Below, piece after piece: positions 5,861 through 61,504 of a DNA stretch of 64,000 nt. The translations under genes were made by a program, and so were the position numbers. Source of the DNA: Chiloscyllium plagiosum (Eukaryota). The notes beneath the pieces were generated by a model that worked only from the letters and a program-made list of their open reading frames with translations, was not told the origin of the DNA and made no database searches. Every line of letters begins with the position of its first letter. Within the stretch, counting starts at the first letter, position 1. Location: the NCBI RefSeq assembly GCF_004010195.1, contig NC_057718.1:90568376-90632375 (forward strand), written 5' to 3'.

Positions 5861-6240
5861 GCAGGGCAGAGGAAATGACCTGGGAGTTGCAGCGGGAGAG
5901 GAACTCCCTGAGATTCTTGTAGAGAGAGGAGGAAAACTTCTTCAAGGCAGGCATCCTTCCAAGAGGATTTGCTGTAGGGTTAAAATCAACGAGGTAAAAA
6001 CAATGACTGTAGATGCTTGAAACCAGAGTCTAGATTAGAGTGGTGCTACTTTCTCCCCACCCCCACCCTCCTCTCTTTTATCTCTCCACCCTTCAGGCAT
6101 TCTGCCTGTATTCCTGATGAAGGGCTTTTGCCCGAAACGTCGATTTTACTGCTCCTCAGATGCTGCTTGAACTGCTATGCTTTTCCAGCACCACTAATCC
6201 AGAATCTGGTTTCCAGCATCTGCAGTCATTGTTTTTACCT
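5861..6240. mobile_element. PLE insertion: inverted terminal repeat plus ORF start (minus) joined to a sense terminal repeat with hammerhead
   Basis: 5990-6048 is the reverse complement of 6187-6240; minus arm runs into ATG MPALKKFSSSLYKNLRE; 14-bp TSD agt(c/t)tgcaatagct at 5847-5860 and 6241-6254. Confidence 0.85.
6110..6145 (+). ncRNA. Minimal type I hammerhead ribozyme motif (family A), intact core
   Basis: TC-CTGATGA-A-GGGC tttt GCCC-GAAA-CGTC-GA: conserved core, stem II hairpin, ACGT palindromic stem III, GUC cleavage triplet. Activity untested. Confidence 0.8.
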
Positions 6241-6689: not shown

Positions 6690-7620
6690 AATAGGAGATC
6701 ATGGCCTAGTGGTATTATCATGGGACTGTCAATCCAGCTAACATGCAGCCAGCCCAGGATTGAATCTGACCAGTTAGATGGTGGGATTTGCATTCAATAA
6801 AAATCTGGAGTTAAGAATCTTACAACATGAAAACAGAAGCTTCAGTCTGTGCTGACCATAATCCTAAACTAGTCCCACTTACCTGCTCCTGATCCATATT
6901 ACTCCAAACCTTTCCTATTCATGTAATCATCTAAATGTCTTTTAAACATTGTAACTGTACCCGCATCCATCACTTCCTCGGGAAGTTCATTTCAGACACC
7001 AACCTCTCTCTGTGTGAAAAAAAGTGCCCCTCATGTCTTTTTAAAATCTTTCTCACCTCACCATAAAAATGCCCCCTAGTTTTGAAATCCCCCACCCTAG
7101 AGAAAACACACCCGCCATTCACCTTATCCATGCCCCTCATGATTTTATAAACGTCTACCAGGTCACCCCTCAACCTCCTACACTGCAGGAAAAAAAATCC
7201 CACCCTATCCAGACTCTCCTTATAACTCCAGCCCTCCATTTCCAGCAACATCCTGGTAAATCTCTTTTGCAGTCTCTCCAGTTTAGTAGCATCCTTCCTA
7301 TTACAGGGCAAGAACTGGACATAGTACTCCACAGGAGGCCTCACCAACAGCCTCAATATAATGCCCCATATTATGTTTGAGTATAAAATGTTCATCTAAC
7401 GATGACCTTGAATCCATGGTGAAATGTTGGAAAAACCCATCTGGTTCACTAATGTCCTTTAGGGAAGGAAACTGCCATCCTTACCCGGTCTGGTCTACAT
7501 GTGACTCCAGACCCACAGCGATGTGGTTGCCTCTTACCTGCCTGCTGGGCAATTAGGGATGGGCAAAAAATGCTGGCCTAGTCAGCGATGGCCTCATCCT
7601 GTGAATGAATAAACAAGAAA
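6690..7620 (+). mobile_element. tRNA-derived SINE (second family) split by a CR1 insertion
   Basis: Head ggcctagtggtattatc...; body resumes ~7392 with cccatctggttcactaatgtcctttagggaagg and a gaatgaataaa tail; relatives at ~35040-35400, 54570-56270, 63185-63760. Confidence 0.7.
6817..7365 (-). mobile_element. CR1/HER1-type LINE 3' fragment
   Basis: Minus ORF LVRPPVEYYVQF..LERLQKRFTRM..RRLRGDLVDVYKIMRG. Confidence 0.92.
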
Positions 7621-8484
7621 AGTATTCATTGTTCACAAATTTCGGTCTGGTGGAAGATCAAGGAGACAGGCTGTGAAACTGTACTAGCTGGGCAAGGATT
7701 GATCCCTACACTTGGCACCAGCCTGGCACACACTGGCCACCTAGCTAAGTGGTCTCCCCAACCAATAAAGACTTTTACAAGCATGCTGTAGCCTTGGAGC
7801 TAGGGATAGAGATGGTGGGGAGTTGACCCAGAAATCTCCTCTGCCCTTACTGCCTGTCATTGAATAAGTTGGAAGGATTAGCAAGCTGATGAACTCTTGC
7901 CCCCATAACATGTACACTTTCCTGGAGTGGGGCTTGATCCTCGTATTCCTGGCTCAGAGGCAGAACGCTACGCAGTGTATTGCGATGCCTCCTTCTGCCC
8001 ATTATAAAGAAATTATAATGTCTCTCTTCCCAATTTCTAACCTGCCAATTTCGAGAAATAAAATGTAAAAATGTGCGAATGCCTTCAGAAACATTGGTAG
8101 CTCTAAACTGAACCAGTTGGTTTATGAACAAACTGTATGTAGATTCAGTGTTTTGGGGATAGTGTAGCATATTTTTTGATGTGAAAATCTAAAGCCAACT
8201 CATGCGCTAACAAGTAGATACACAGAGTGCAGTCTAATGAGGAACTTATCCTAACTTCTAAGTTGAACGCATGTCCCATCAAGTGATTTATTGGTAAAAA
8301 TCTAAAATATACGACAATGCTTTTTATGCTGATGTGTTGCGGCATTTCCCATGGTGAATTGGAAAGCTGAGTTATTTCCACAGGGCATGAGGAGGTTCTG
8401 TGGACATTTCACCCCCTCTCCTGACAGTTTGAACATGTCACCCATTACTTTTCATTTAGAATCTATCATGTTTTTGCCTATTCA

Positions 8485-9036
8485 GATGAAATACTGCGTT
8501 CACTTCTGGTTTCCCTGCTATAGAGAAGATGTTGTTCAACTTGAAAGGGTTCAGAAAAGATTTACAATGCTGGTGCCAGGTTTGGAGGGTTTAAGCTATA
8601 GGGAGAGGCTGAACAGGCTGGGGCTGTTTTCCCTGGAGTGTCGGAGGCTGAGGGGTGACCTCATAGAGGTTTACAAAATCATGAGGGGCGTGGATAGGGC
8701 AAATAGGCAAGGTCTTTTCCCTGGGATTGGGGAGTCCAGAACTAGAGGGCATAGGCTTAGGATGAGAGGGGAAAGATATAAAAGGGACCTAAGGGGCAAC
8801 CTTTTCTTGCAGAGGGTGGTACGTGTATGGAATGAGCTACCAGAGGAAGTGGTGGAGGCTGGTACAATTACAAACATTTAACAGGCATCTGGATGGGTAT
8901 ATGAATAGGAAGGGTTATGAGGGATATGGGCCAAGTGCTGGCAAATGGGACTAGATTAATTTGGGATATTTGGTCAGCATGGACAAGTTGGACAGAAGGG
9001 TCTGTTTCTGTGCTGTACAGCAGTATGACTCTATGA
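8485..9036 (+). mobile_element. CR1/HER1-type LINE 3' fragment
   Basis: YCVHFWFP..LERVQKRFT..RRLRGDLIEVYKIMRG..RTRGH..FLQRVVRVWNELP; tail tatgactctatga. Confidence 0.95.
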
Positions 9037-12368: not shown

Positions 12369-12487
12369 TTCATTTCACCTGATGAAGGGGCAGCGCTCTG
12401 AAAGCAAGTGCTTCCAAATAAACCTGTTGGACTATCTCCTGGCGTCATGTGACTTCTTTCTCTGAAGCAGATGGTCCCATTGTTATC

Positions 12488-12621
12488 CCCTTGTTTCCTG
12501 AAGAAGGGCTTATGCCCGAAACGTCGATTCTCCTGTTCCCTGGATGCTGCCTGACCTGCTGCGCTTTTCCAGCAACACATTTCCAGCTCTGATCTCCAGC
12601 ATCTGCAGCCCTCACTTTCTC
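12488..12621 (+). mobile_element. Solo PLE terminal repeat with intact family A hammerhead (core 12498-12525)
   Basis: CTGAAGA-A-GGGC ttat GCCC-GAAACGTC; 12-bp TSD cccattgttatc at 12476-12487 and 12622-12633. Confidence 0.88.
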
Positions 12622-13029
12622 CCCATTGTTATCTATGCTGATTCCATTCTGTCTGTCCTACTTGGCCATTCTCACATGAGCACAGCCCCTCACACAAAAG
12701 GCCTTAATAAAATGGATGACTGCGATGTGGAAATTTTGCAGTTGGCCGCTGCTCCAGGAGTAAACTCTACCTCGTCACCTGTGAGTCGCCTCTGTGGAAA
12801 CTCGAAGAAAAGTAGCCTTAGGCAGACAAACCTCCTAACAAGGAACAAGCGCAGGCCACTCTGTCCATCCAGCTTGCTCGGGCTCGCAGCTGATTAACCT
12901 CGATTCTACATTCCTGTAAAGTAGTGTCTTTGACAGTAGGGACAGCAGGCTGTGTTTATCAAGAGATTGGTACTCCCCACAGTTAGTCAGTTGGAAACAG
13001 CCCTCTGGTATAACAGGGACATCTATTAT

Positions 13030-13500
13030 CGTAGAAACATAAAAAAATGGAAGCAGCTGTAAGCTATTGGGCCCCTTGAGCCTGATCCTCCATTCGATCT
13101 GATTATGGCTGACCGTCCACCTCAGTCCCCTGTTCCTGCTTTCTCCCCATATCTTTTGACCCGAAGAATTGTGTCCAACTCCTTCTTGAGAACATTCAAT
13201 GTTTTGGCCTCAACTGCTTCTAGCAGCAGAGAATTCCACAGGCTCTGGGTGAAGAATTTTTCTCATTTCAATCCTAAATGGCCTACCCCATGGCCTTAAA
13301 CTGTAACCCCTCATTCCAGTCTCCCCTATTACTGGAAACATCCTTCCTGCATCTACTCCTGTGTAGCTCTGTTACAATTTTATACGTTTCTACGAGATAC
13401 ACGCTGTCATTCTTCTAAACTCCAGTGATTATAAGCCCTAGCCAATCCAGTGTCTCTTCATACATGGTCCTGCCATCCCAAGAATCAGTCTGTCAATCCC
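13030..13500 (-). mobile_element. CR1-type LINE 3' fragment (older subfamily)
   Basis: gaattccacagg...ctgggtgaagaa, cttctaaactccag and 3' UTR ggccccttgagcctg motifs. Confidence 0.8.
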
Positions 13501-13904
13501 AGGTCATGTGATTCACATACAAAGCATCCTGGACTTTTAGAGGAAATCTATTGATTCATTCCCCAGCAAATATAAATCCAGTTACAGGAGTCATTATGTG
13601 CTGTACTTTACTGTGGTGTCATGTTTTGGCATTTATGACAGGAATGTTTGGGTTTTTTAATCACCATGTTGCTAATAAATTGAATTAACAATGAAATGTC
13701 GAAAAGGCAGAATTTACACTTTTGTGAGATGTAGCTTGGGTGTGATGGACTGTCTGGACACATGCTTACAGCCTGGATAACATCCTGGGTTTAAGGCAAT
13801 GGAGCATTTCCTTAGGCCCTACCAACCCCAGCCCTTCGCCTCGAGGATAATATCACCTTCAGAGTCTTGGGGTTCTGCCTTGAGTCTTCGAGGGGCTTGT
13901 GGGA

Positions 13905-14185
13905 GAGTTTAGGACTAGAGGGCATAATCTCAAAGTAAGTGGTTACACATTTAAGACACAGATAAGGAGGAATTTCCACTGTTAAAGGGGAACAAATCTG
14001 TGGAATTCTTCACCACAGGCTGGGTCATTAAATACATTTGAGGCTGAGATACGCAGCTTTTTAATCAGTAAGAAAATCAAAGGTCATGGGGGAAAAGTGG
14101 AGTTGAGGATTATCAGATCGGCCACGATCTCATTGAATGGCGGGATGGGCTGAATGGCCTACTTCGGTTCCTCTGCCTTATATCT
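13905..14185 (+). mobile_element. CR1-type LINE 3' fragment
   Basis: ggactagagggcat (RTRGH), ctgtggaattct, gatcggccacgatctcattgaatggc tail. Confidence 0.8.
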
Positions 14186-14479
14186 GGGACTGAACAGGCT
14201 AGATTCTCAACCTATGGATCTTTGGGCAGTTGGCGCATGCTACCCGTTGAGCTAGTGGGATCCGGAATGCAGAAGCTTGTTCTGAGAACAAGTGGGCAGT
14301 GACTGGATTGACTCCCATTTGAATACGTTCCTTTCCATCATTAAGGTTGATACTGCTGCAAGTCAGGGTGAACTCTCCATGCACTCATCGTATGGATTTG
14401 GGAGAATATTGAACCACCGTCTCCGATCTACCATCAGCCCTAACTTCAGCAATCCACACTTGTAACTCTCTTTAAGATG

Positions 14480-14990
14480 AGACGTGCTTGATGCTTTGGA
14501 AACTTTTGAGAAACTTTCCCTTCTATCCACAGCTAGGAAAATCCTGACGTACGTACTCCTGAATCAGTTACTTCCTGTGGCTGAGGAAATTCTCCCAGAG
14601 ACGCGTTCTGGCTTTGGACCTTCCACAGGAGCACACTGTCTCAGGATCTCGGATTCCAAGAAAGTCTGAGGAAAATGTGTGACAAATAACAGCATTCACT
14701 GTATTCATTGACCTCCATCTCCCTATCGCAACCTCAGCTACCTTCCCTCCAGCCTCACCACCCCCTCCCATTTATCTCTCAGCCCTCTTGGCCCACGAGC
14801 CTCATTCCTGATGAAGGGCCTATGCCCGAAACGTCGATTTTCCTGCTCCTCAGATGCTGCCTGACCGGCTGTGCTTTTCCAGCGCCACACTCCCGATTCA
14901 TTGACCTGATCAAAACATCTGATTCAGTAAAAGGCTGATGTGGATTGCTCTCCAGAGATTCGAATATCTTAAGCAAACGTCTTCCCAATC
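14480..14990 (+). mobile_element. RTE-clade LINE RT fragment interrupted by a PLE terminal repeat
   Basis: LSLLSTARKIL..LLNQLLPVAEEILPETRSGF and FIDLIKTSDSV match decayed RTE RT motifs. Confidence 0.75.
14715..14895 (+). mobile_element. Solo PLE terminal repeat with intact family A hammerhead (core 14808-14835)
   Basis: CTGATGA-A-GGGC ctat GCCC-GAAACGTC; 12-bp TSD attcattgacct at 14703-14714 and 14896-14907. Confidence 0.87.
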
Positions 14991-15420: not shown

Positions 15421-15610
15421 ATCAAGATTAGAGTGGTGCTGTAAAAGCACAGCAGGTCAGGCAGCATCCGAGGAGCAGGAAAATCGACGTTTCGGGCAGG
15501 AGCCCTTCATCATTTTCCTGCCCCTCGGATGCTGCCTGACTTACTGTGCTTTTCCAGCACCACTCTAATCGAGACTCTAATCTCCAGCATCTGCAGTCCT
15601 CACTTTCGCC
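15421..15610. mobile_element. PLE-derived inverted pair (family A)
   Basis: Inverted arms; 14-bp TSD tgtttg(g/a)aatggca at 15407-15420 and 15611-15624. Confidence 0.87.
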
Positions 15611-17557: not shown

Positions 17558-17844
17558 CCTCTCTCCACAAGAATCTCAGTGAGTCTCTCTCTCACTGCAC
17601 CCCCCCATGTCATCTCCTTGGCCCTGAAGCTCTTCAACCATGTCCTGAAACAGACTCGCTACCGCAGCCACATACATCTGCTTACTTTTTGCTACCTTCT
17701 CCTACCCCCCCCCACTCCAATTTATCTCTCCACCCTGGAGGCTCCCTGCCCCTATTCCTGATGAAGGGCTTTTGCCTGAAAGGTCGATTTTCCTGCTCCT
17801 CGGATGCTGCCTGACCTGCTGTGCTTTTCCAGCACCACTCTGAT
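17558..17844 (+). mobile_element. Internally deleted PLE: ORF 5' segment fused to terminal repeat with hammerhead
   Basis: 17558-17680 is homologous to the ORF start seen on the minus strand at 5861-5954; hammerhead core at 17758; 14-bp TSD ctaaacaaaatgct at 17544-17557 and 17845-17858. Confidence 0.82.
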
Positions 17845-18553: not shown

Positions 18554-19377
18554 TTAAAACATGGGCTGCTGTTACTTTCTTAAAGCTGCCCCCACTGACT
18601 GTGCACACAGTTGGAGTTAACGGTCACCTCAAGGTCTGTCATGATCAATGGACAGGATTAGAGGGGATGTATTGGGTATTCAAAGAATGCAGGGCCTTGT
18701 GAGAAAATTGCTTTTGCAGGAGTGAATGTTATGACTGTTAAATCATCGCTGTCTGGGGGGAGGTCTCTTTGAAATGAGATGAATAGGAGTGGACGGTCTG
18801 TTCTGTGGCTGAGACAGCACTCTGGAGTGTGGCAGCTTTTCACTGAATTGTGAACAGCACAGGAAAAGGCCATTCAGCCTCTCCTGAGGAGCAGCGAGGC
18901 CAGGGTCATTCCCTGCCGTAACCCCGCCCGTTCCTCCTTTCCAGACAATAATGCAAGTGCCTCAGTTGAACCAGCCTCCACCACACTCTGAGTCTTGTTC
19001 ACTCGCTGCACTCACAGGCTCCTCCTCACATCTTCATTTCCATCCACCTCAAATCTGTGCCCAGCTCTCGTTCTCAATCCTTCCCTCGCCAGCAAGACCA
19101 GTTTCTCCTTCTCTACCCCATCAGGACCCCATTCTGATTTTGGGCAACTCTCTCTAATCTCCCCCAAAGCAAACTAACCCGAATTCTCCAATCTACCTGG
19201 CAAGCTGGAGTTCCTCGCCCCTGGAAAATTGTAAAGCCTTTCACTGCTAGTTGTTGAGGAAGTTCAGTCCTTGAAAAGGCTCCTGTTTCTTGTAAAATGT
19301 TGCTGAGTTCACTCACAAGATGCACTGGTTAAAAATCACACAATGCCAGGTTACAGTCCAACAGATCCATTTGGAAG

Positions 19378-19412
19378 CACTAGCTTTCGGAGCGCTGCTC
19401 CTTCATCAGGTG
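19378..19412 (-). ncRNA. Minimal type I hammerhead ribozyme motif (family B), intact
   Basis: Reverse complement CAC-CTGATGA-A-GGAGC agc GCTCC-GAAA-GCTA-GTG: perfect stems I and II, AGCT palindromic stem III, CUA triplet; lies within PLE fragment ~19328-19535. Confidence 0.85.
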
Positions 19413-19603
19413 GTTATGGAGCATGACCAGAGGACACAGAATTTATAGCAAAAGGTTACAGTGTCACGCAACTGAAATGATATATTGAACAAACCTAGTT
19501 TGCTGTTAAGTCTTTCATCTTTTAGAATGGGCACAAGCTGACTTGGAGCGAGACCATGCCAATGAGCATGCTCCTTCAAGGAACGTTGGAAAACCAGGAG
19601 GCC

Positions 19604-20165
19604 AGGTTTGTGAAGGTTTGTAGCTCACGTTGAGGTTTAGGGTGTAGGTTTGCTCGCTGAGCTGTAGGTTTGATATTCAGACGTTTCATTACCTGGATAG
19701 GTAACATCATCAGTGGCGACCTCCAAGTGAAGCGAAGCTGTTGTCTCCTGCTTTCTATTTATATCTTTCTCCTGGATGGGGTTCCTGGGGTTTGTGGTGA
19801 TGTAATTTCCTGTTCGTTTTCTGAGGGGTTGATAGATGGCATCTAGATCTATGTGTTTGTTTATGGTGTTGTGGTTGGAGTGCCAGGCCTCTAGGAATTC
19901 CTCTCTCTCCCTCATAGCCCTACAAACAGATGAAAAAAACCACCATTTCGACTGGGACAACACATCCTGGGACAGGCTAAGCAAAGACATGCCAGAGAAT
20001 TCCTAGAGGCCTGGCACTCCAACCCCATCCAGGAGAAAGATATAAATAGAAAGCAGGGGATAACATCTTCGCTTCACTTGGAGATCGCCACTGATGATGT
20101 TACCTAGCCAGGTAATGAAACGTCTGGATATCAAACTCCCAGCTCAGCGAGCAAATCTACACCCT
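19604..20165. mobile_element. PLE inverted-pair insertion (family C) with GIY-YIG C-terminal remnants
   Basis: Both arms encode EFLEAWHSN; minus arm continues HNTINKHIDLDAIYQPLR; hammerheads at 19677-19716 (-) and 20088-20127 (+); 13-bp TSD aaaccaggaggcc at 19591-19603 and 20166-20178. Confidence 0.9.
20088..20127 (+). ncRNA. Minimal type I hammerhead ribozyme motif (family C), intact core
   Basis: CCA-CTGATGA-T-GTTACC tagcca GGTAAT-GAAA-CGTC-TGG. Confidence 0.83.
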
Positions 20166-20862
20166 AAACCAGGAGGCCTTTCATGGCTTGAATATTCTAA
20201 AAGGCGTTTGTCCAGGGTCCCCCTCTGATTGTTGTGACATGTTTGCATCTTTCCTCTTGATCTTTCACCAATCCCCTGTCTGAATTGTAACAGGTAATGG
20301 GATTAATCTCCCCTTAATTTCCTGAGGGAAGTGTTGCGTGGACAAGTCTCCTGAATCTTAATCAACCCTCACGTCTCTGCTTGGCTGTGGCCTGCTCTTC
20401 TGGACAAACATCTCCTCACCCCTGGCCTTGGCAGTCTTCTGATAGCGTCCCTGATTCATCAGACTGCGGGGGATTTGTAGCATTTTGTGGTTATCATTTT
20501 AGCCAAACAGCGGGGAGGCTATAAATTTCTCTGGTATGTGTCGATATATCTCTCTTCTGTAACAGTGGTGCATGTTACTGCTGTCTGGTAATCTCTGGGA
20601 AGTTGTAACTGAGTCAGAAGTTATGTGTTTTCAGTTTGTCTTGCTGTCTGAAACAGAAATGCTGGGAACATCTTATCGAAATGTTGCCACTCCTTGTCTA
20701 AGGACAGCAGGAATGAGCATTAAACTCTTGATGGACCAGAGCAGCATCTGCCTTGCTATCCCTCCCCTTGTTTATCCCTGGGAGAGAGCTGCACTCATTT
20801 TGAAGCCATTTAGACTTGAGATGTTGGTGTAAAATGAACTGCATCAGATTGTTGAGCCACTA

Positions 20863-50549: not shown

Positions 50550-51833
50550 AGAGTCATAGAGATGTACAGCATGGATACAGACCCTTCGGTCCAACCCGTC
50601 CATGCCGACCAGATATCCCAACCCAAATTAATCCCACCTGCCAGCATCCAGCCCATATCCCTCCAAAACCTTCCTATTCATATACCCATCCAAATTCCTC
50701 TTAAATGTTGCAATTTTACCAGCCTCCACCACTTCCTCTGGCAGCTCATTCCATACATGTATCACCCTCTGTGTGAATAAGTTGCCCCTTAGGTCTCTTT
50801 TATATCTTTCCCCTCTCACCCTACACCTATGCCCTCTAGTTCTGGACTCCCTGACCCCAGGGAAAAGACTTTGACTATTTAGCCTATCCATGCCTCTCAT
50901 AATTTTGTAAACCTCTTTAAAGTCACCCGTCAGTCTCGGATGCTCCAGGGAAAACAGCCCAGCCTTAGATTACTTAGAGTGTGGAAACAGGCCCTTCGGC
51001 CCAGCAAGTCCACACCGACCCGCCGAAGTGCAACCCACCCAAACCCATTCCCCTACATTTACCCTGCCCCTAACACGACAGACAATTTAGCATGGTCAAT
51101 TTACCTAATCTGCACATTTTTGGACTGTGGGAGGAAACCCACGCAGACACGGGGAGAATGTGCAAACTCCACACAGTCAGTCGCCTGAGGCGGGAATTGA
51201 ACCCGGGTCTCTGGTGCTGTGAGGCAGCAGTGCTAACCACTGTCTCACCGTGCCTGTTCAGCCTCTCCCTATATCTTAAATCCTCCAACCCTGGCAACAT
51301 CTTTGTAAATCTTTTCTGAACCCTTTCAAGTTTCACAACATCTTTCCGATAGGAAAGAGACCAGAAATGCACGCAATATTCCAACTGCAGCCTAACCAAT
51401 GTCCTGTACAGCCGCAACATGATCTCCCAACTCCTGAAGTCAATACTCTGACCAATAAAGGAAAGCATACCAAACGCCTTCTTCACTATCCTATCTACCT
51501 GTGACTCCACTTTCAAGGAGCTATGAACCTGCACTCCAAGGTCTCTTTGTTCAGCAACACTCCCTAGGACCTTACCATTAAGTGTATAAGTCCTGCAAAG
51601 ATTTGCTTTCCCAAAATGCAGCACCTCACAATTATCTGAACCAAATTCCATCTGCCACTTCTCAGCCCATTGGTCCATCTGGTTGTAATCTGAGGTAACC
51701 CTTTTCGTTGTCCACTACACCTCCAGTTTTGGTGTCATCTGCAAACTTACTAACTGTACCCCTTATGCTCGCATCCAAATCATTTATGTAAATGACAAAA
51801 AGTAGAGGACCCAGCACCGATCCTTGTGGCACG
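50550..51833 (-). mobile_element. Young CR1/HER1-type LINE, 5'-truncated in the RT domain
   Basis: [56 protein letters not shown]; interrupted by HE1. Confidence 0.95.
50966..51253 (-). mobile_element. HE1-type SINE inserted in CR1
   Basis: CR1 cagcccagcct|gttcagcctctccct is split by the SINE. Confidence 0.92.
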
Positions 51834-55899: not shown

Positions 55900-56132
55900 T
55901 GCTCAGCAGGTCTGCCAGCATCTGTGGAGAGAAATCAGAGTTAATGTTTCTGGTCGAGTGACCCTTCCTCAGAACTGATGGTAGCACCGACCATTTTCCT
56001 AGCTACCAACAGTTCTGAGGAAGGGTCAGTCGACCAGAAACATTAACTCTGAGTTCTCTCCCTGCCAGACCTGCTGAGCTTTCCAAGTAATTTTGACTTT
56101 TATTCCAGCATCTGCAGTCCTTTCAGTTTTTA
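55900..56132. mobile_element. PLE-derived inverted pair (family D) with two hammerhead motifs
   Basis: AGTT-CTGAGGA-A-GGGTC..GACCA-GAAACATT-AACT at 55939-55976 (-) and 56011-56048 (+). Confidence 0.85.
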
Positions 56133-59700: not shown

Positions 59701-61504
59701 GTATACTCCATATACTCATATGCTCCATTTCAGGAGAATGTCCATTTAGGATCGAAGGACCAACTGATAAAGTCTATGCCTTTTAAGTCCAGCAGGAAGG
59801 GCATGATACTTTGAGCTTTGCCTGGATTGAACTGCATGTTCTGGATTTGAAAAAAACTGCTGAATATTAATAGGCTGAGAGTTGGTTAACTGCTTCTCTT
59901 AACTGATGTTGCACAGTGGAGATTCAAGCCAATTTATATTTGAATGAACAATCTAGATGTACACTACATTGTGCTCATAGCACGAAAAAAGTGAATTCTC
60001 AACTTTCACTGGAGCAAATGAATGTTTTTTTTCTTCATTCATGGGATGTGGGCATCGCTGGCTTGCCAGCATTTACTGCCCATCCCACACTCTCCTTGGT
60101 GGTGAGCTGCCTTCTTGACCTACTGCAATCCACATGCTCTGGGTTCACCCCCAATGCTGTTAGGGAGGGATTTCCAAGATTTTGACGCAGTGACAGTGAA
60201 GGAACAGCAATATATATCCTAAGTCAGGATGGTGAGCAGTCTGGGGCAGAACTAGAAGGTGGTGGTGTTCAGTTGCTCACCTTAGAGCTGGTTCAGACAT
60301 GATGGAACGAATGGCCTCTATCTGCACTGTAACAATTCTATAATAGTAAATGTCATCTCTCCTACTAATCCAGCTCCGGTAAGATCATGCTGAATCTACA
60401 ATTCACCCATTTCAAGGCCATTATATACTTGCTATGCTTTTGTGCATTGACCTGTATGCAGTGGTCCAGATGTGATCTAGCTGAGCTTCCGATAACCGTT
60501 ACAAACCTTCCTTGCCTTTCTGCTCTTGTCTTCTGTTTACAAATGCTTTTGGATTTTTTTTTGTATCTGATCCCTACAATTTAGACCAATTAACTTGAAT
60601 CTGTAAGATATCAATCACTATAAAGAGGAAATTCATGTCTTTAGCACCCTAGCAACCAAAATTCTGCCTAAATGGCGAATATTGCCCTCAACTAAACTCT
60701 GGTTATCCTTTCGTCTCGCTGAAGGTCAAGGGAAGTCCATATGTTTGGCTGTGTATAAAATGGAATACTTGTAAACACATCTCATGCACCGTCTACAATC
60801 ACCTGAAATGTAAAGTGTTTCTGTCACATAACAAAAGCAAAATATACTGATGCTGGAGATCACAGATATGGAGAAAACAGAAGCGCTGGAGAAACTCAGC
60901 AGGTCTGGCAGCCTCTGTGTGAGAGAGAGAGAGAAAACAGGTGGAACGATTCTTTGTGGAGCTGAACTGACATCAGTTCTGAAGGAAAACATTGATTGAC
61001 TCAATGCTCGGAGTTGTTGAATGTAAAACTCAAACAGATTATCCATGTAGAGCAGGCTCGAGGGGCTGAATGGCTGATATCTGCTCCGACTTTGTATGTT
61101 AGCTGTGCTGCTTTCTGCTGCTGGAACTGCGGTGTTTTTGCAGCATTCCCGTTACTGTGTTATCTCTGTGTGACTGGACTTGCCCTCTTGCGCACCGTGG
61201 ATCTGAGGCTGTGCAGAGATAGATTTGGAGGTAGGACTGGGAGCAACCTTTGAGATTTAGGGGTTATAATCTACCCCGCATCCACCACGCGCACCAAATG
61301 CTCTTGCTCTGTAGCTGCCGTAGGAAGGTCGGGCCAAGACCATAGTGGCTACAGAGTTTGTGCTGGTCACTGGGATCCTTCCATCGAGGTCAAAAGCCTG
61401 AGGGTCAACATCTTGTTGAATATTCCTCCCCATAAAGAAACATGCTCACTCCTCATCCGGGCGACTGCTGCCAATCTTTTTTTTTCGCGCCAGTCTAGAC
61501 CCAG

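Follow-up and report, generated by a model that had tools for sequence, protein, structure and literature searches.

Loopless minimal hammerheads and PLE-like end-pieces in a 64-kb window of the Chiloscyllium plagiosum genome

In a window of 64,000 nucleotides from Chiloscyllium plagiosum (contig NC_057718.1; the window is the whole stretch of DNA that we analysed), three motifs between positions 19378 and 20127 raise the question of how a hammerhead ribozyme that leaves no room for a stem III loop could cleave, and whether its dispersed copies might cut a long transcript of the host. A preliminary description of this DNA had proposed that such motifs are obligate dimers, that only copies of the same family can pair, and that same-strand copies in one long transcript could cut it. 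The first two of these proposals have held up, while the last finds no support. We consider it very probable that the sequences are minimal type-I hammerheads in the pseudo-LTRs (pLTRs) of Penelope-like retrotransposons (Penelope-like elements, PLEs), present here as short 3′ end-pieces, most of them decayed, from four families (A to D), and that the cutting of host RNA by them is unlikely. In the window itself, we observe the anatomy of the motif, an endonuclease remnant upstream of it in family C, a head-to-head layout with a flanking duplication, and the decay of the copies.

Anatomy of the motif and its pairing

The presence of the motif is confirmed. The three loopless minimal hammerheads lie at 19409(-) in family B and at 19713(-) and 20091(+) in family C, and all of them carry the core CUGANGA ... 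GAAA with U16.1-H17. In each, only two bases separate A15.1 from U16.1-H17, and an intramolecular loop for stem III is therefore impossible; a conserved alternative stem III for a monomer is absent as well. The tetramer at 15.1-16.1 is self-complementary, being ACGT in families A, C, and D and AGCT in family B (GAAA-GCTA at 19409, and GAAA-CGTC in the two family C motifs, with H17 at 19680 and 20124, respectively). Helix II contains the G10.1 pair and is preceded by one extra 5′ nucleotide, with 4 bp in family A, 5 bp in B, and 7 bp in C (closing G-U), while the short helix I keeps 2 to 3 bp in the intact copies, with pairs that differ among the four families. The coordinates of these and related features are collected in Table 1. 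The preliminary description had correctly named the loopless, self-complementary stem III and the cleavage positions of family A (6141, 12525, and 14835). It had also read the ACGT/AGCT difference as a compensated switch; the difference in the tetramer stands, but it represents one event only, between families. Similarly, the best-preserved copies are palindromic, as described, but the tetramer is intact in only part of the copies (9 of 16 in A, 4 of 6 in B, 2 of 3 in C, and 2 of 7 in D, with B to D read by eye from 34 aligned rows).

Scanned with a descriptor, the window yields 14 cores whose stem II has at least 3 bp; nine of the 14 have a palindromic tetramer and UH, and seven also have a stem I of at least 2 bp, versus means of 0.99, about 0.03 to 0.04, and 0.005, respectively, in 200 block-wise dinucleotide shuffles of the 64 kb (maxima of 6, 1, and 1). 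The intact motifs are A6114, A12498, A14808, and C20091 on the plus strand and B19409, C19713, and A63398 on the minus strand. Rfam covariance models gave no match at gathering level in the whole window, and among the four matches obtained in 19300-20250 up to E 10, hammerhead families do not appear; the identification therefore rests on the descriptor scan and the literature. These four weak matches, to miRNA and snoRNA families, are far below gathering, and we discarded them as products of the inverted repeat or of chance. Where core position 7 is U, as in 6114-6142 and other copies, pairing between the core and the tetramer region is possible, and the fold predicted for the monomer is an inactive extended hairpin.

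Loopless minimal hammerheads in PLE pLTRs, with a palindrome at 15.2-16.2, were defined in 2014 by Cervera and de la Pena (PMC4209133), and the motifs in the window are of the same type as those reported there for metazoan PLEs. According to that article, monomers are inactive, dimers and trimers are weakly active in vitro, and opposite-strand pairs occur 100 to 700 bp apart. The title of a paper by Lunse, Weinberg, and Breaker (RNA Biol 14:1499) and a review that cites it (PMC6765202) state the same conclusion on dimers. Thus, the loopless palindrome and the dimer requirement that the preliminary description drew from it are borne out and were already known, having been published in 2014. The helix I of family A has 2 bp, versus 4 to 5 bp in the minimal hammerheads of Schistosoma, and 2 bp have been reported for D. 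virilis (PMC4209133). Sharks are not named in the parts of that article available to us, and our literature search returned no paper on shark copies, its one match (PMC6155905) using "shark" as the name of a ribozyme in the text at hand; a 2026 preprint (10.64898/2026.07.22.740005) includes one chondrichthyan.

It is established for such motifs that, without a stem III loop, two copies must pair through the 4-bp palindrome, each lending its cleavage strand to the other; each core of the double hammerhead borrows from its partner U16.1, H17, and the strand that forms the 3′ side of stem I. In the mechanism that we favour, an active tandem element with two direct pLTRs would give rise to the working dimer within its transcript, the element's own protein would probably aid it, and the family-specific stem I would limit pairing to the same family. 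Same-family pairs form the four pairs of stem III and both stems I, whereas A with C and A with D share ACGU, yet form no stem I pairs, and A with B keeps two of the four stem III pairs. The proposed restriction to the same family is right, and, given the lack of stem I pairs between A and C or D, it is mainly due to stem I between molecules. In the anole, a PLE hammerhead has been reported to cleave only with its protein, insertion proceeds without hammerhead cleavage, and no RNA-seq reads end at the hammerhead site (PMC11167929).

Element context of the four families

The two family C motifs sit in opposite-strand arms of one head-to-head insertion (19604-20170), whose arms match in inverted orientation over 150 nt at 93% (I1) plus 31 nt at 97% (I2). 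From its position, the 13-nt direct repeat flanking the insertion would be a target-site duplication of 8 to 13 bp, and the AC-rich extension found on one arm would be, also by position, the optional "tail" of a PLE; one-sided PLE tails of 30 to 40 bp have been described (PMC8557442, PMC11167929). Relative to the minus arm, the plus arm has an internal deletion of about 90 nt at 20021-20027. A search with the minus-strand frame gave 49 matching proteins at E ≤ 0.001, ten of which carry a GIY-YIG match (one above the Pfam cut-off) and two an RVT_1 match above the cut-off, with P0032 carrying both domains; in the remaining 38, a Pfam match is absent or unrelated. With tblastn, the match falls at the endonuclease C-terminus on both arms, and the remnant aligns to the C-termini of the reverse transcriptase/GIY-YIG proteins P0023 and P0032, while the closest named proteins are from Chiloscyllium punctatum and Hemiscyllium ocellatum. 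As in an EN+ PLE, a GIY-YIG C-terminus lies directly upstream of the pLTR, and there are an inverted, 5′-truncated arm, a one-sided tail, and a duplication, the last two judged by position. Reverse transcriptase is absent from this 5′-truncated copy and present in the homologues P0023 and P0032. The segment 51783-51953 (-) is a second PLE endonuclease C-terminal remnant, related to family C. The proteins P0001 and P0002 (annotated in Chiloscyllium and Hemiscyllium; EH-domain gene, CUEDC2) contain family C sequence in frame, which is probably an exonised repeat or an annotation chimera.

The layout of family C resembles that of PAc from the anole (Poseidon; Frangieh et al. 2024, PMC11167929), in which the endonuclease C-terminus is also followed by the pLTR and an AC-rich optional tail. 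In both, there is an ATG at the start of stem II, which in 19713(-) opens a frame running through the tail, and the cut site lies 28 nt on in family C and 26 nt on in PAc. In contrast to PAc, family C is represented here by a head-to-head remnant that is truncated and frameshifted and lacks reverse transcriptase. The hammerheads of newt and axolotl satellites and of non-LTR retrozymes likewise have a palindromic, dimeric stem III (PMC7229834; 10.64898/2026.07.22.740005). Unlike the copies in the window, these satellite and retrozyme hammerheads are described as lying in tandem repeats of 150 to 450 bp and as keeping a residual helix III; in the window, the 16 tandem rows are all simple repeats, and none is an array that carries the motif.

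Matches to PLE proteins in the window occur solely at 19.6-20.2 kb and 51.8-52.0 kb, with none beside the copies of families A, B, and D. Since these three families have no ORF remnant in the window, their origin from PLEs is one that we infer; their head-to-head layout is PLE-like, and for family B, the motif and the head-to-head B pairs point to this assignment. The hammerhead at 6112-6143, for instance, belongs to a head-to-head pair whose centre is near 6045, where it occupies the plus arm. The long A copies (6044-6113, 14737-14807, and 17690-17757) share a pyrimidine-rich stretch and an AG located 8 to 25 nt upstream of the core, which resemble a 3′ splice site; in Penelope of D. virilis, an intron end has been reported at helix I (PMC4209133). 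In the D pair at 55926-56061, both arms have the same non-palindromic tetramer and the same stem II mismatch; these defects were either inherited from the template or spread between the arms by homogenisation.

Table 1. Hammerhead motifs and element parts in the window (positions within the 64,000-nt stretch)
Feature	Position	Strand	Remarks
Family A hammerhead	6112..6143	+	core intact, stem I 2 bp, H17 at 6141
Family A hammerhead	12496..12527	+	core intact, stem I 2 bp, H17 at 12525
Family A hammerhead	14806..14837	+	core intact, stem I 2 bp, H17 at 14835
Antisense family A arm, 83 nt	15430..15512	-	90% complementary to 14809-14891
Family B PLE-like solo end-piece, ~90 nt	19327..19419	-	82-87% identical to other B copies, measured over about -10 to +82 relative to C3
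Family B minimal type-I hammerhead	19378..19412	-	stem I 3 bp, stem II 5 bp, AGCT, H17 = A at 19381
Left copy of 13-nt direct repeat	19591..19603	+	100% identical to 20166-20178
AC-rich extension, 30 nt, one arm only	19604..19633	-	between duplication and shared-arm end
Family C minus arm	19604..19900	-	GIY-YIG endonuclease C-terminal remnant, then pLTR with hammerhead, then putative tail
Family C minimal hammerhead	19678..19715	-	core starts 19713, stem II 7 bp, ACGT, stem I 2 bp
Family C plus arm	19901..20170	+	frameshifted endonuclease remnant, pLTR with hammerhead, tail absent
Family C minimal hammerhead	20088..20127	+	core starts 20091, stem II 7 bp, ACGT, stem I 3 bp
Right copy of direct repeat	20166..20178	+	first 5 nt overlap element end

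The same loopless motif was found in at least 121 metagenome loci, using a search pattern that fixed the tetramer and left out stem I. Among the loci listed, a stem I of at least 3 Watson-Crick pairs is present in 29 of 64 distinct contexts, versus a mean of 5.9 and a maximum of 13 with shuffled partners (2000 rounds), and a PLE protein match was found in 6 of the 121, in all six on the same strand and 177 to 1346 nt upstream. The unseeded cores in the listed loci number 13, too few for an unbiased test of the palindrome, and two of them have a stem I, both with ACGT. In viral contigs, a scan with a free tetramer gave chance matches: only 1 of 92 distinct matches is hammerhead-like, and it is non-palindromic, while 13 of the 91 others are palindromic.

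Decay of the copies and alternative roles

In the family A copies, the palindromic CpG is intact in 9 of 16 versus 31 of 48 for other CpGs (p = 0.57), a comparison of CpG decay that gives no sign of palindrome preservation, and non-CpG mismatches amount to 6 of 130 positions (4.6%) in the core versus 45 of 520 (8.7%) in the tail; the core is thus somewhat less changed, although not significantly so in this small sample (p = 0.15). The copies found here appear to be fossils in which the motif is a passive inheritance, and the cutting of host RNA by them is unlikely. As for host genes, no Pfam exon reached the cut-off among 202 stop-to-stop frames scanned in the window (198 of the 344 frames of at least 62 aa, namely those under half repeat, and four added by hand), a set that shorter exons escape. 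One plus-strand frame (60653-60847) has a sub-threshold FLYWCH match (E 0.0095, 16.5 bits versus a cut-off of 23.6), which is probably due to chance. The frames at 6970-7395, 8333-8881, and 51070-51714 resemble the ends of reverse transcriptases of CR1-type LINEs; the frame 51073-51714 has no Pfam match.

Two other explanations concern how and what these motifs might cut. It is scarcely credible that they fold as ordinary monomeric hammerheads with a distant stem III partner: six of nine tested copies do have some alternative 3+3-bp fold within 300 nt, but the offsets of these folds differ in every copy, neither family C copy has one, and cleavage has been reported to be absent for single minimal motifs (PMC4209133). 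We also regard as very unlikely the proposal of the preliminary description, namely that dispersed same-strand family A copies pair in a long host transcript and cut it. In the three plus-strand A copies, the core, stem II, ACGU, and the 2 bp of stem I are all kept, each pair among A6114, A12498, and A14808 can be drawn as a double hammerhead, and tandem retrozymes are reported to be depleted from Xenopus introns (10.64898/2026.07.22.740005), which would fit some cost of the motifs in transcripts. Nevertheless, just eight intermolecular pairs would have to bridge 2.3 to 8.7 kb. The cis dimer of 12498 and 14808 is predicted to cost +24.7 kcal/mol relative to the free fold of 12450-14900, and the family A double hammerhead lies 7.8 to 9.5 kcal/mol above the separate folds; these are nearest-neighbour energies that ignore the tertiary contacts of the core and penalise junction closing, and they rank alternatives but cannot exclude activity. 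Predicted structures without stem I scored better than those with it. Antisense A arms on the same strand would form duplexes of -124 to -150 kcal/mol, whereas the best pairing between sense copies reaches -25 to -30; in the predicted fold, 14808 pairs with 15482-15512 and would thereby be sequestered in plus-strand RNA. Furthermore, the decay of the A copies looks neutral, published dimers and trimers are of low activity (PMC4209133), the anole hammerhead stays uncleaved without its protein and lacks RNA-seq ends at its site (PMC11167929), and the product was absent for eight of nine Xenopus dimer elements (10.64898/2026.07.22.740005). None of the three motifs at 19378-20127 has an intact same-family partner on its own strand, and RNA across the C insertion is predicted to form a 150-bp self-duplex that buries the motif (-361 kcal/mol, z -25.6 from 20 shuffles). 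In these models, cutting by A6114, A12498, and A14808 finds no support, given the 2-bp stem I, the cost of the cis dimer, the antisense competition, and the unpreserved palindrome, and it is unlikely that the genomic copies cut any host RNA.

A further alternative, also unlikely in our view, is that the motif serves as a structural landmark or an RNA-RNA bridge during insertion more than as a cutter. The palindromic dimer, like a retroviral dimerisation signal, would bridge two uncleaved PLE templates within a protein dimer, and the head-to-head junctions would be the footprint of this bridge; we hold this version to be equally improbable. It is no less doubtful that the palindrome would hold the two templates antiparallel, that copying would run inward from each target strand with a join close to the hammerhead, and that head-to-head insertions would result; reverse transcription would then end at the 5′ edge of the hammerhead dimer. 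By our reading, the window contains ten head-to-head pairs of families A to D, and in eight of them (near 2945, 9757, 15512, 22831, 40626, 55993, 62954, and 63403), at least one arm starts within -13 to +5 nt of the core (C3), which favours the bridge, as does the fact that 14 of 21 arm starts of family A lie within a single window of 15 nt (P ≤ 5e-5 under a uniform null, with starts read by hand and the window picked post hoc). Subfamily divergence can also shape where BLAST places the arm ends. The predicted cleavage site lies within the arms, which fits uncleaved templates, and PAc, which is predicted to be dimeric, nicks and extends both strands and inserts without hammerhead cleavage (PMC11167929).

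Against the bridge, the C pair (joined about 187 nt upstream) and the 6045 pair (-71/+73) join elsewhere. Both values come from alignments other than the general mapping of arm starts, in which the 6045 minus arm (an unrelated repeat) and the C pair (no long reference) have no true starts. Many solo A copies also start near -13 to +5 of the core, and a transcript start, a splice site, or a short master element would suffice to explain this. In other animals, 5 of 111 listed loci have a head-to-head partner, with starts at -95, -92, -9, +19, and +19, and, among the outside loci listed, 21 of 89 copies end at or after -13 and 52 of 89 beyond -50, figures that subfamily divergence confounds. Moreover, the tetramer common to both arms of the D pair 55972/56015 is non-palindromic, self-priming is an explanation already put forward for such junctions (PMC3846280), and the -13 to +5 window was picked after viewing the data. 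We make no claim of a peak at the cleavage site among the 5′ ends: two arms map to +29, but one of them (40637) looks like an internal deletion, as does the B arm at 2956.

Implications for PLE hammerheads

As an account of dimeric hammerheads in PLE pLTRs, our finding re-derives the result of 2014 in one more animal genome and adds little to it. If host pre-mRNA were cut by dispersed copies, long transcripts would bear a hidden load from the many such motifs in animal genomes; our evidence, however, opposes this. Head-to-head PLE junctions are already known (PMC3846280, PMC8557442), while their clustering at the hammerhead is not mentioned in the available portions of these two articles or in our limited literature search. 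The clustering of 5′ ends bears on the role of the hammerhead in PLE transposition, which PMC8557442 calls unclear, and the reading of the motif as a bridge between templates, if true, would give a role to a ribozyme that need not cleave for insertion to occur in vitro.
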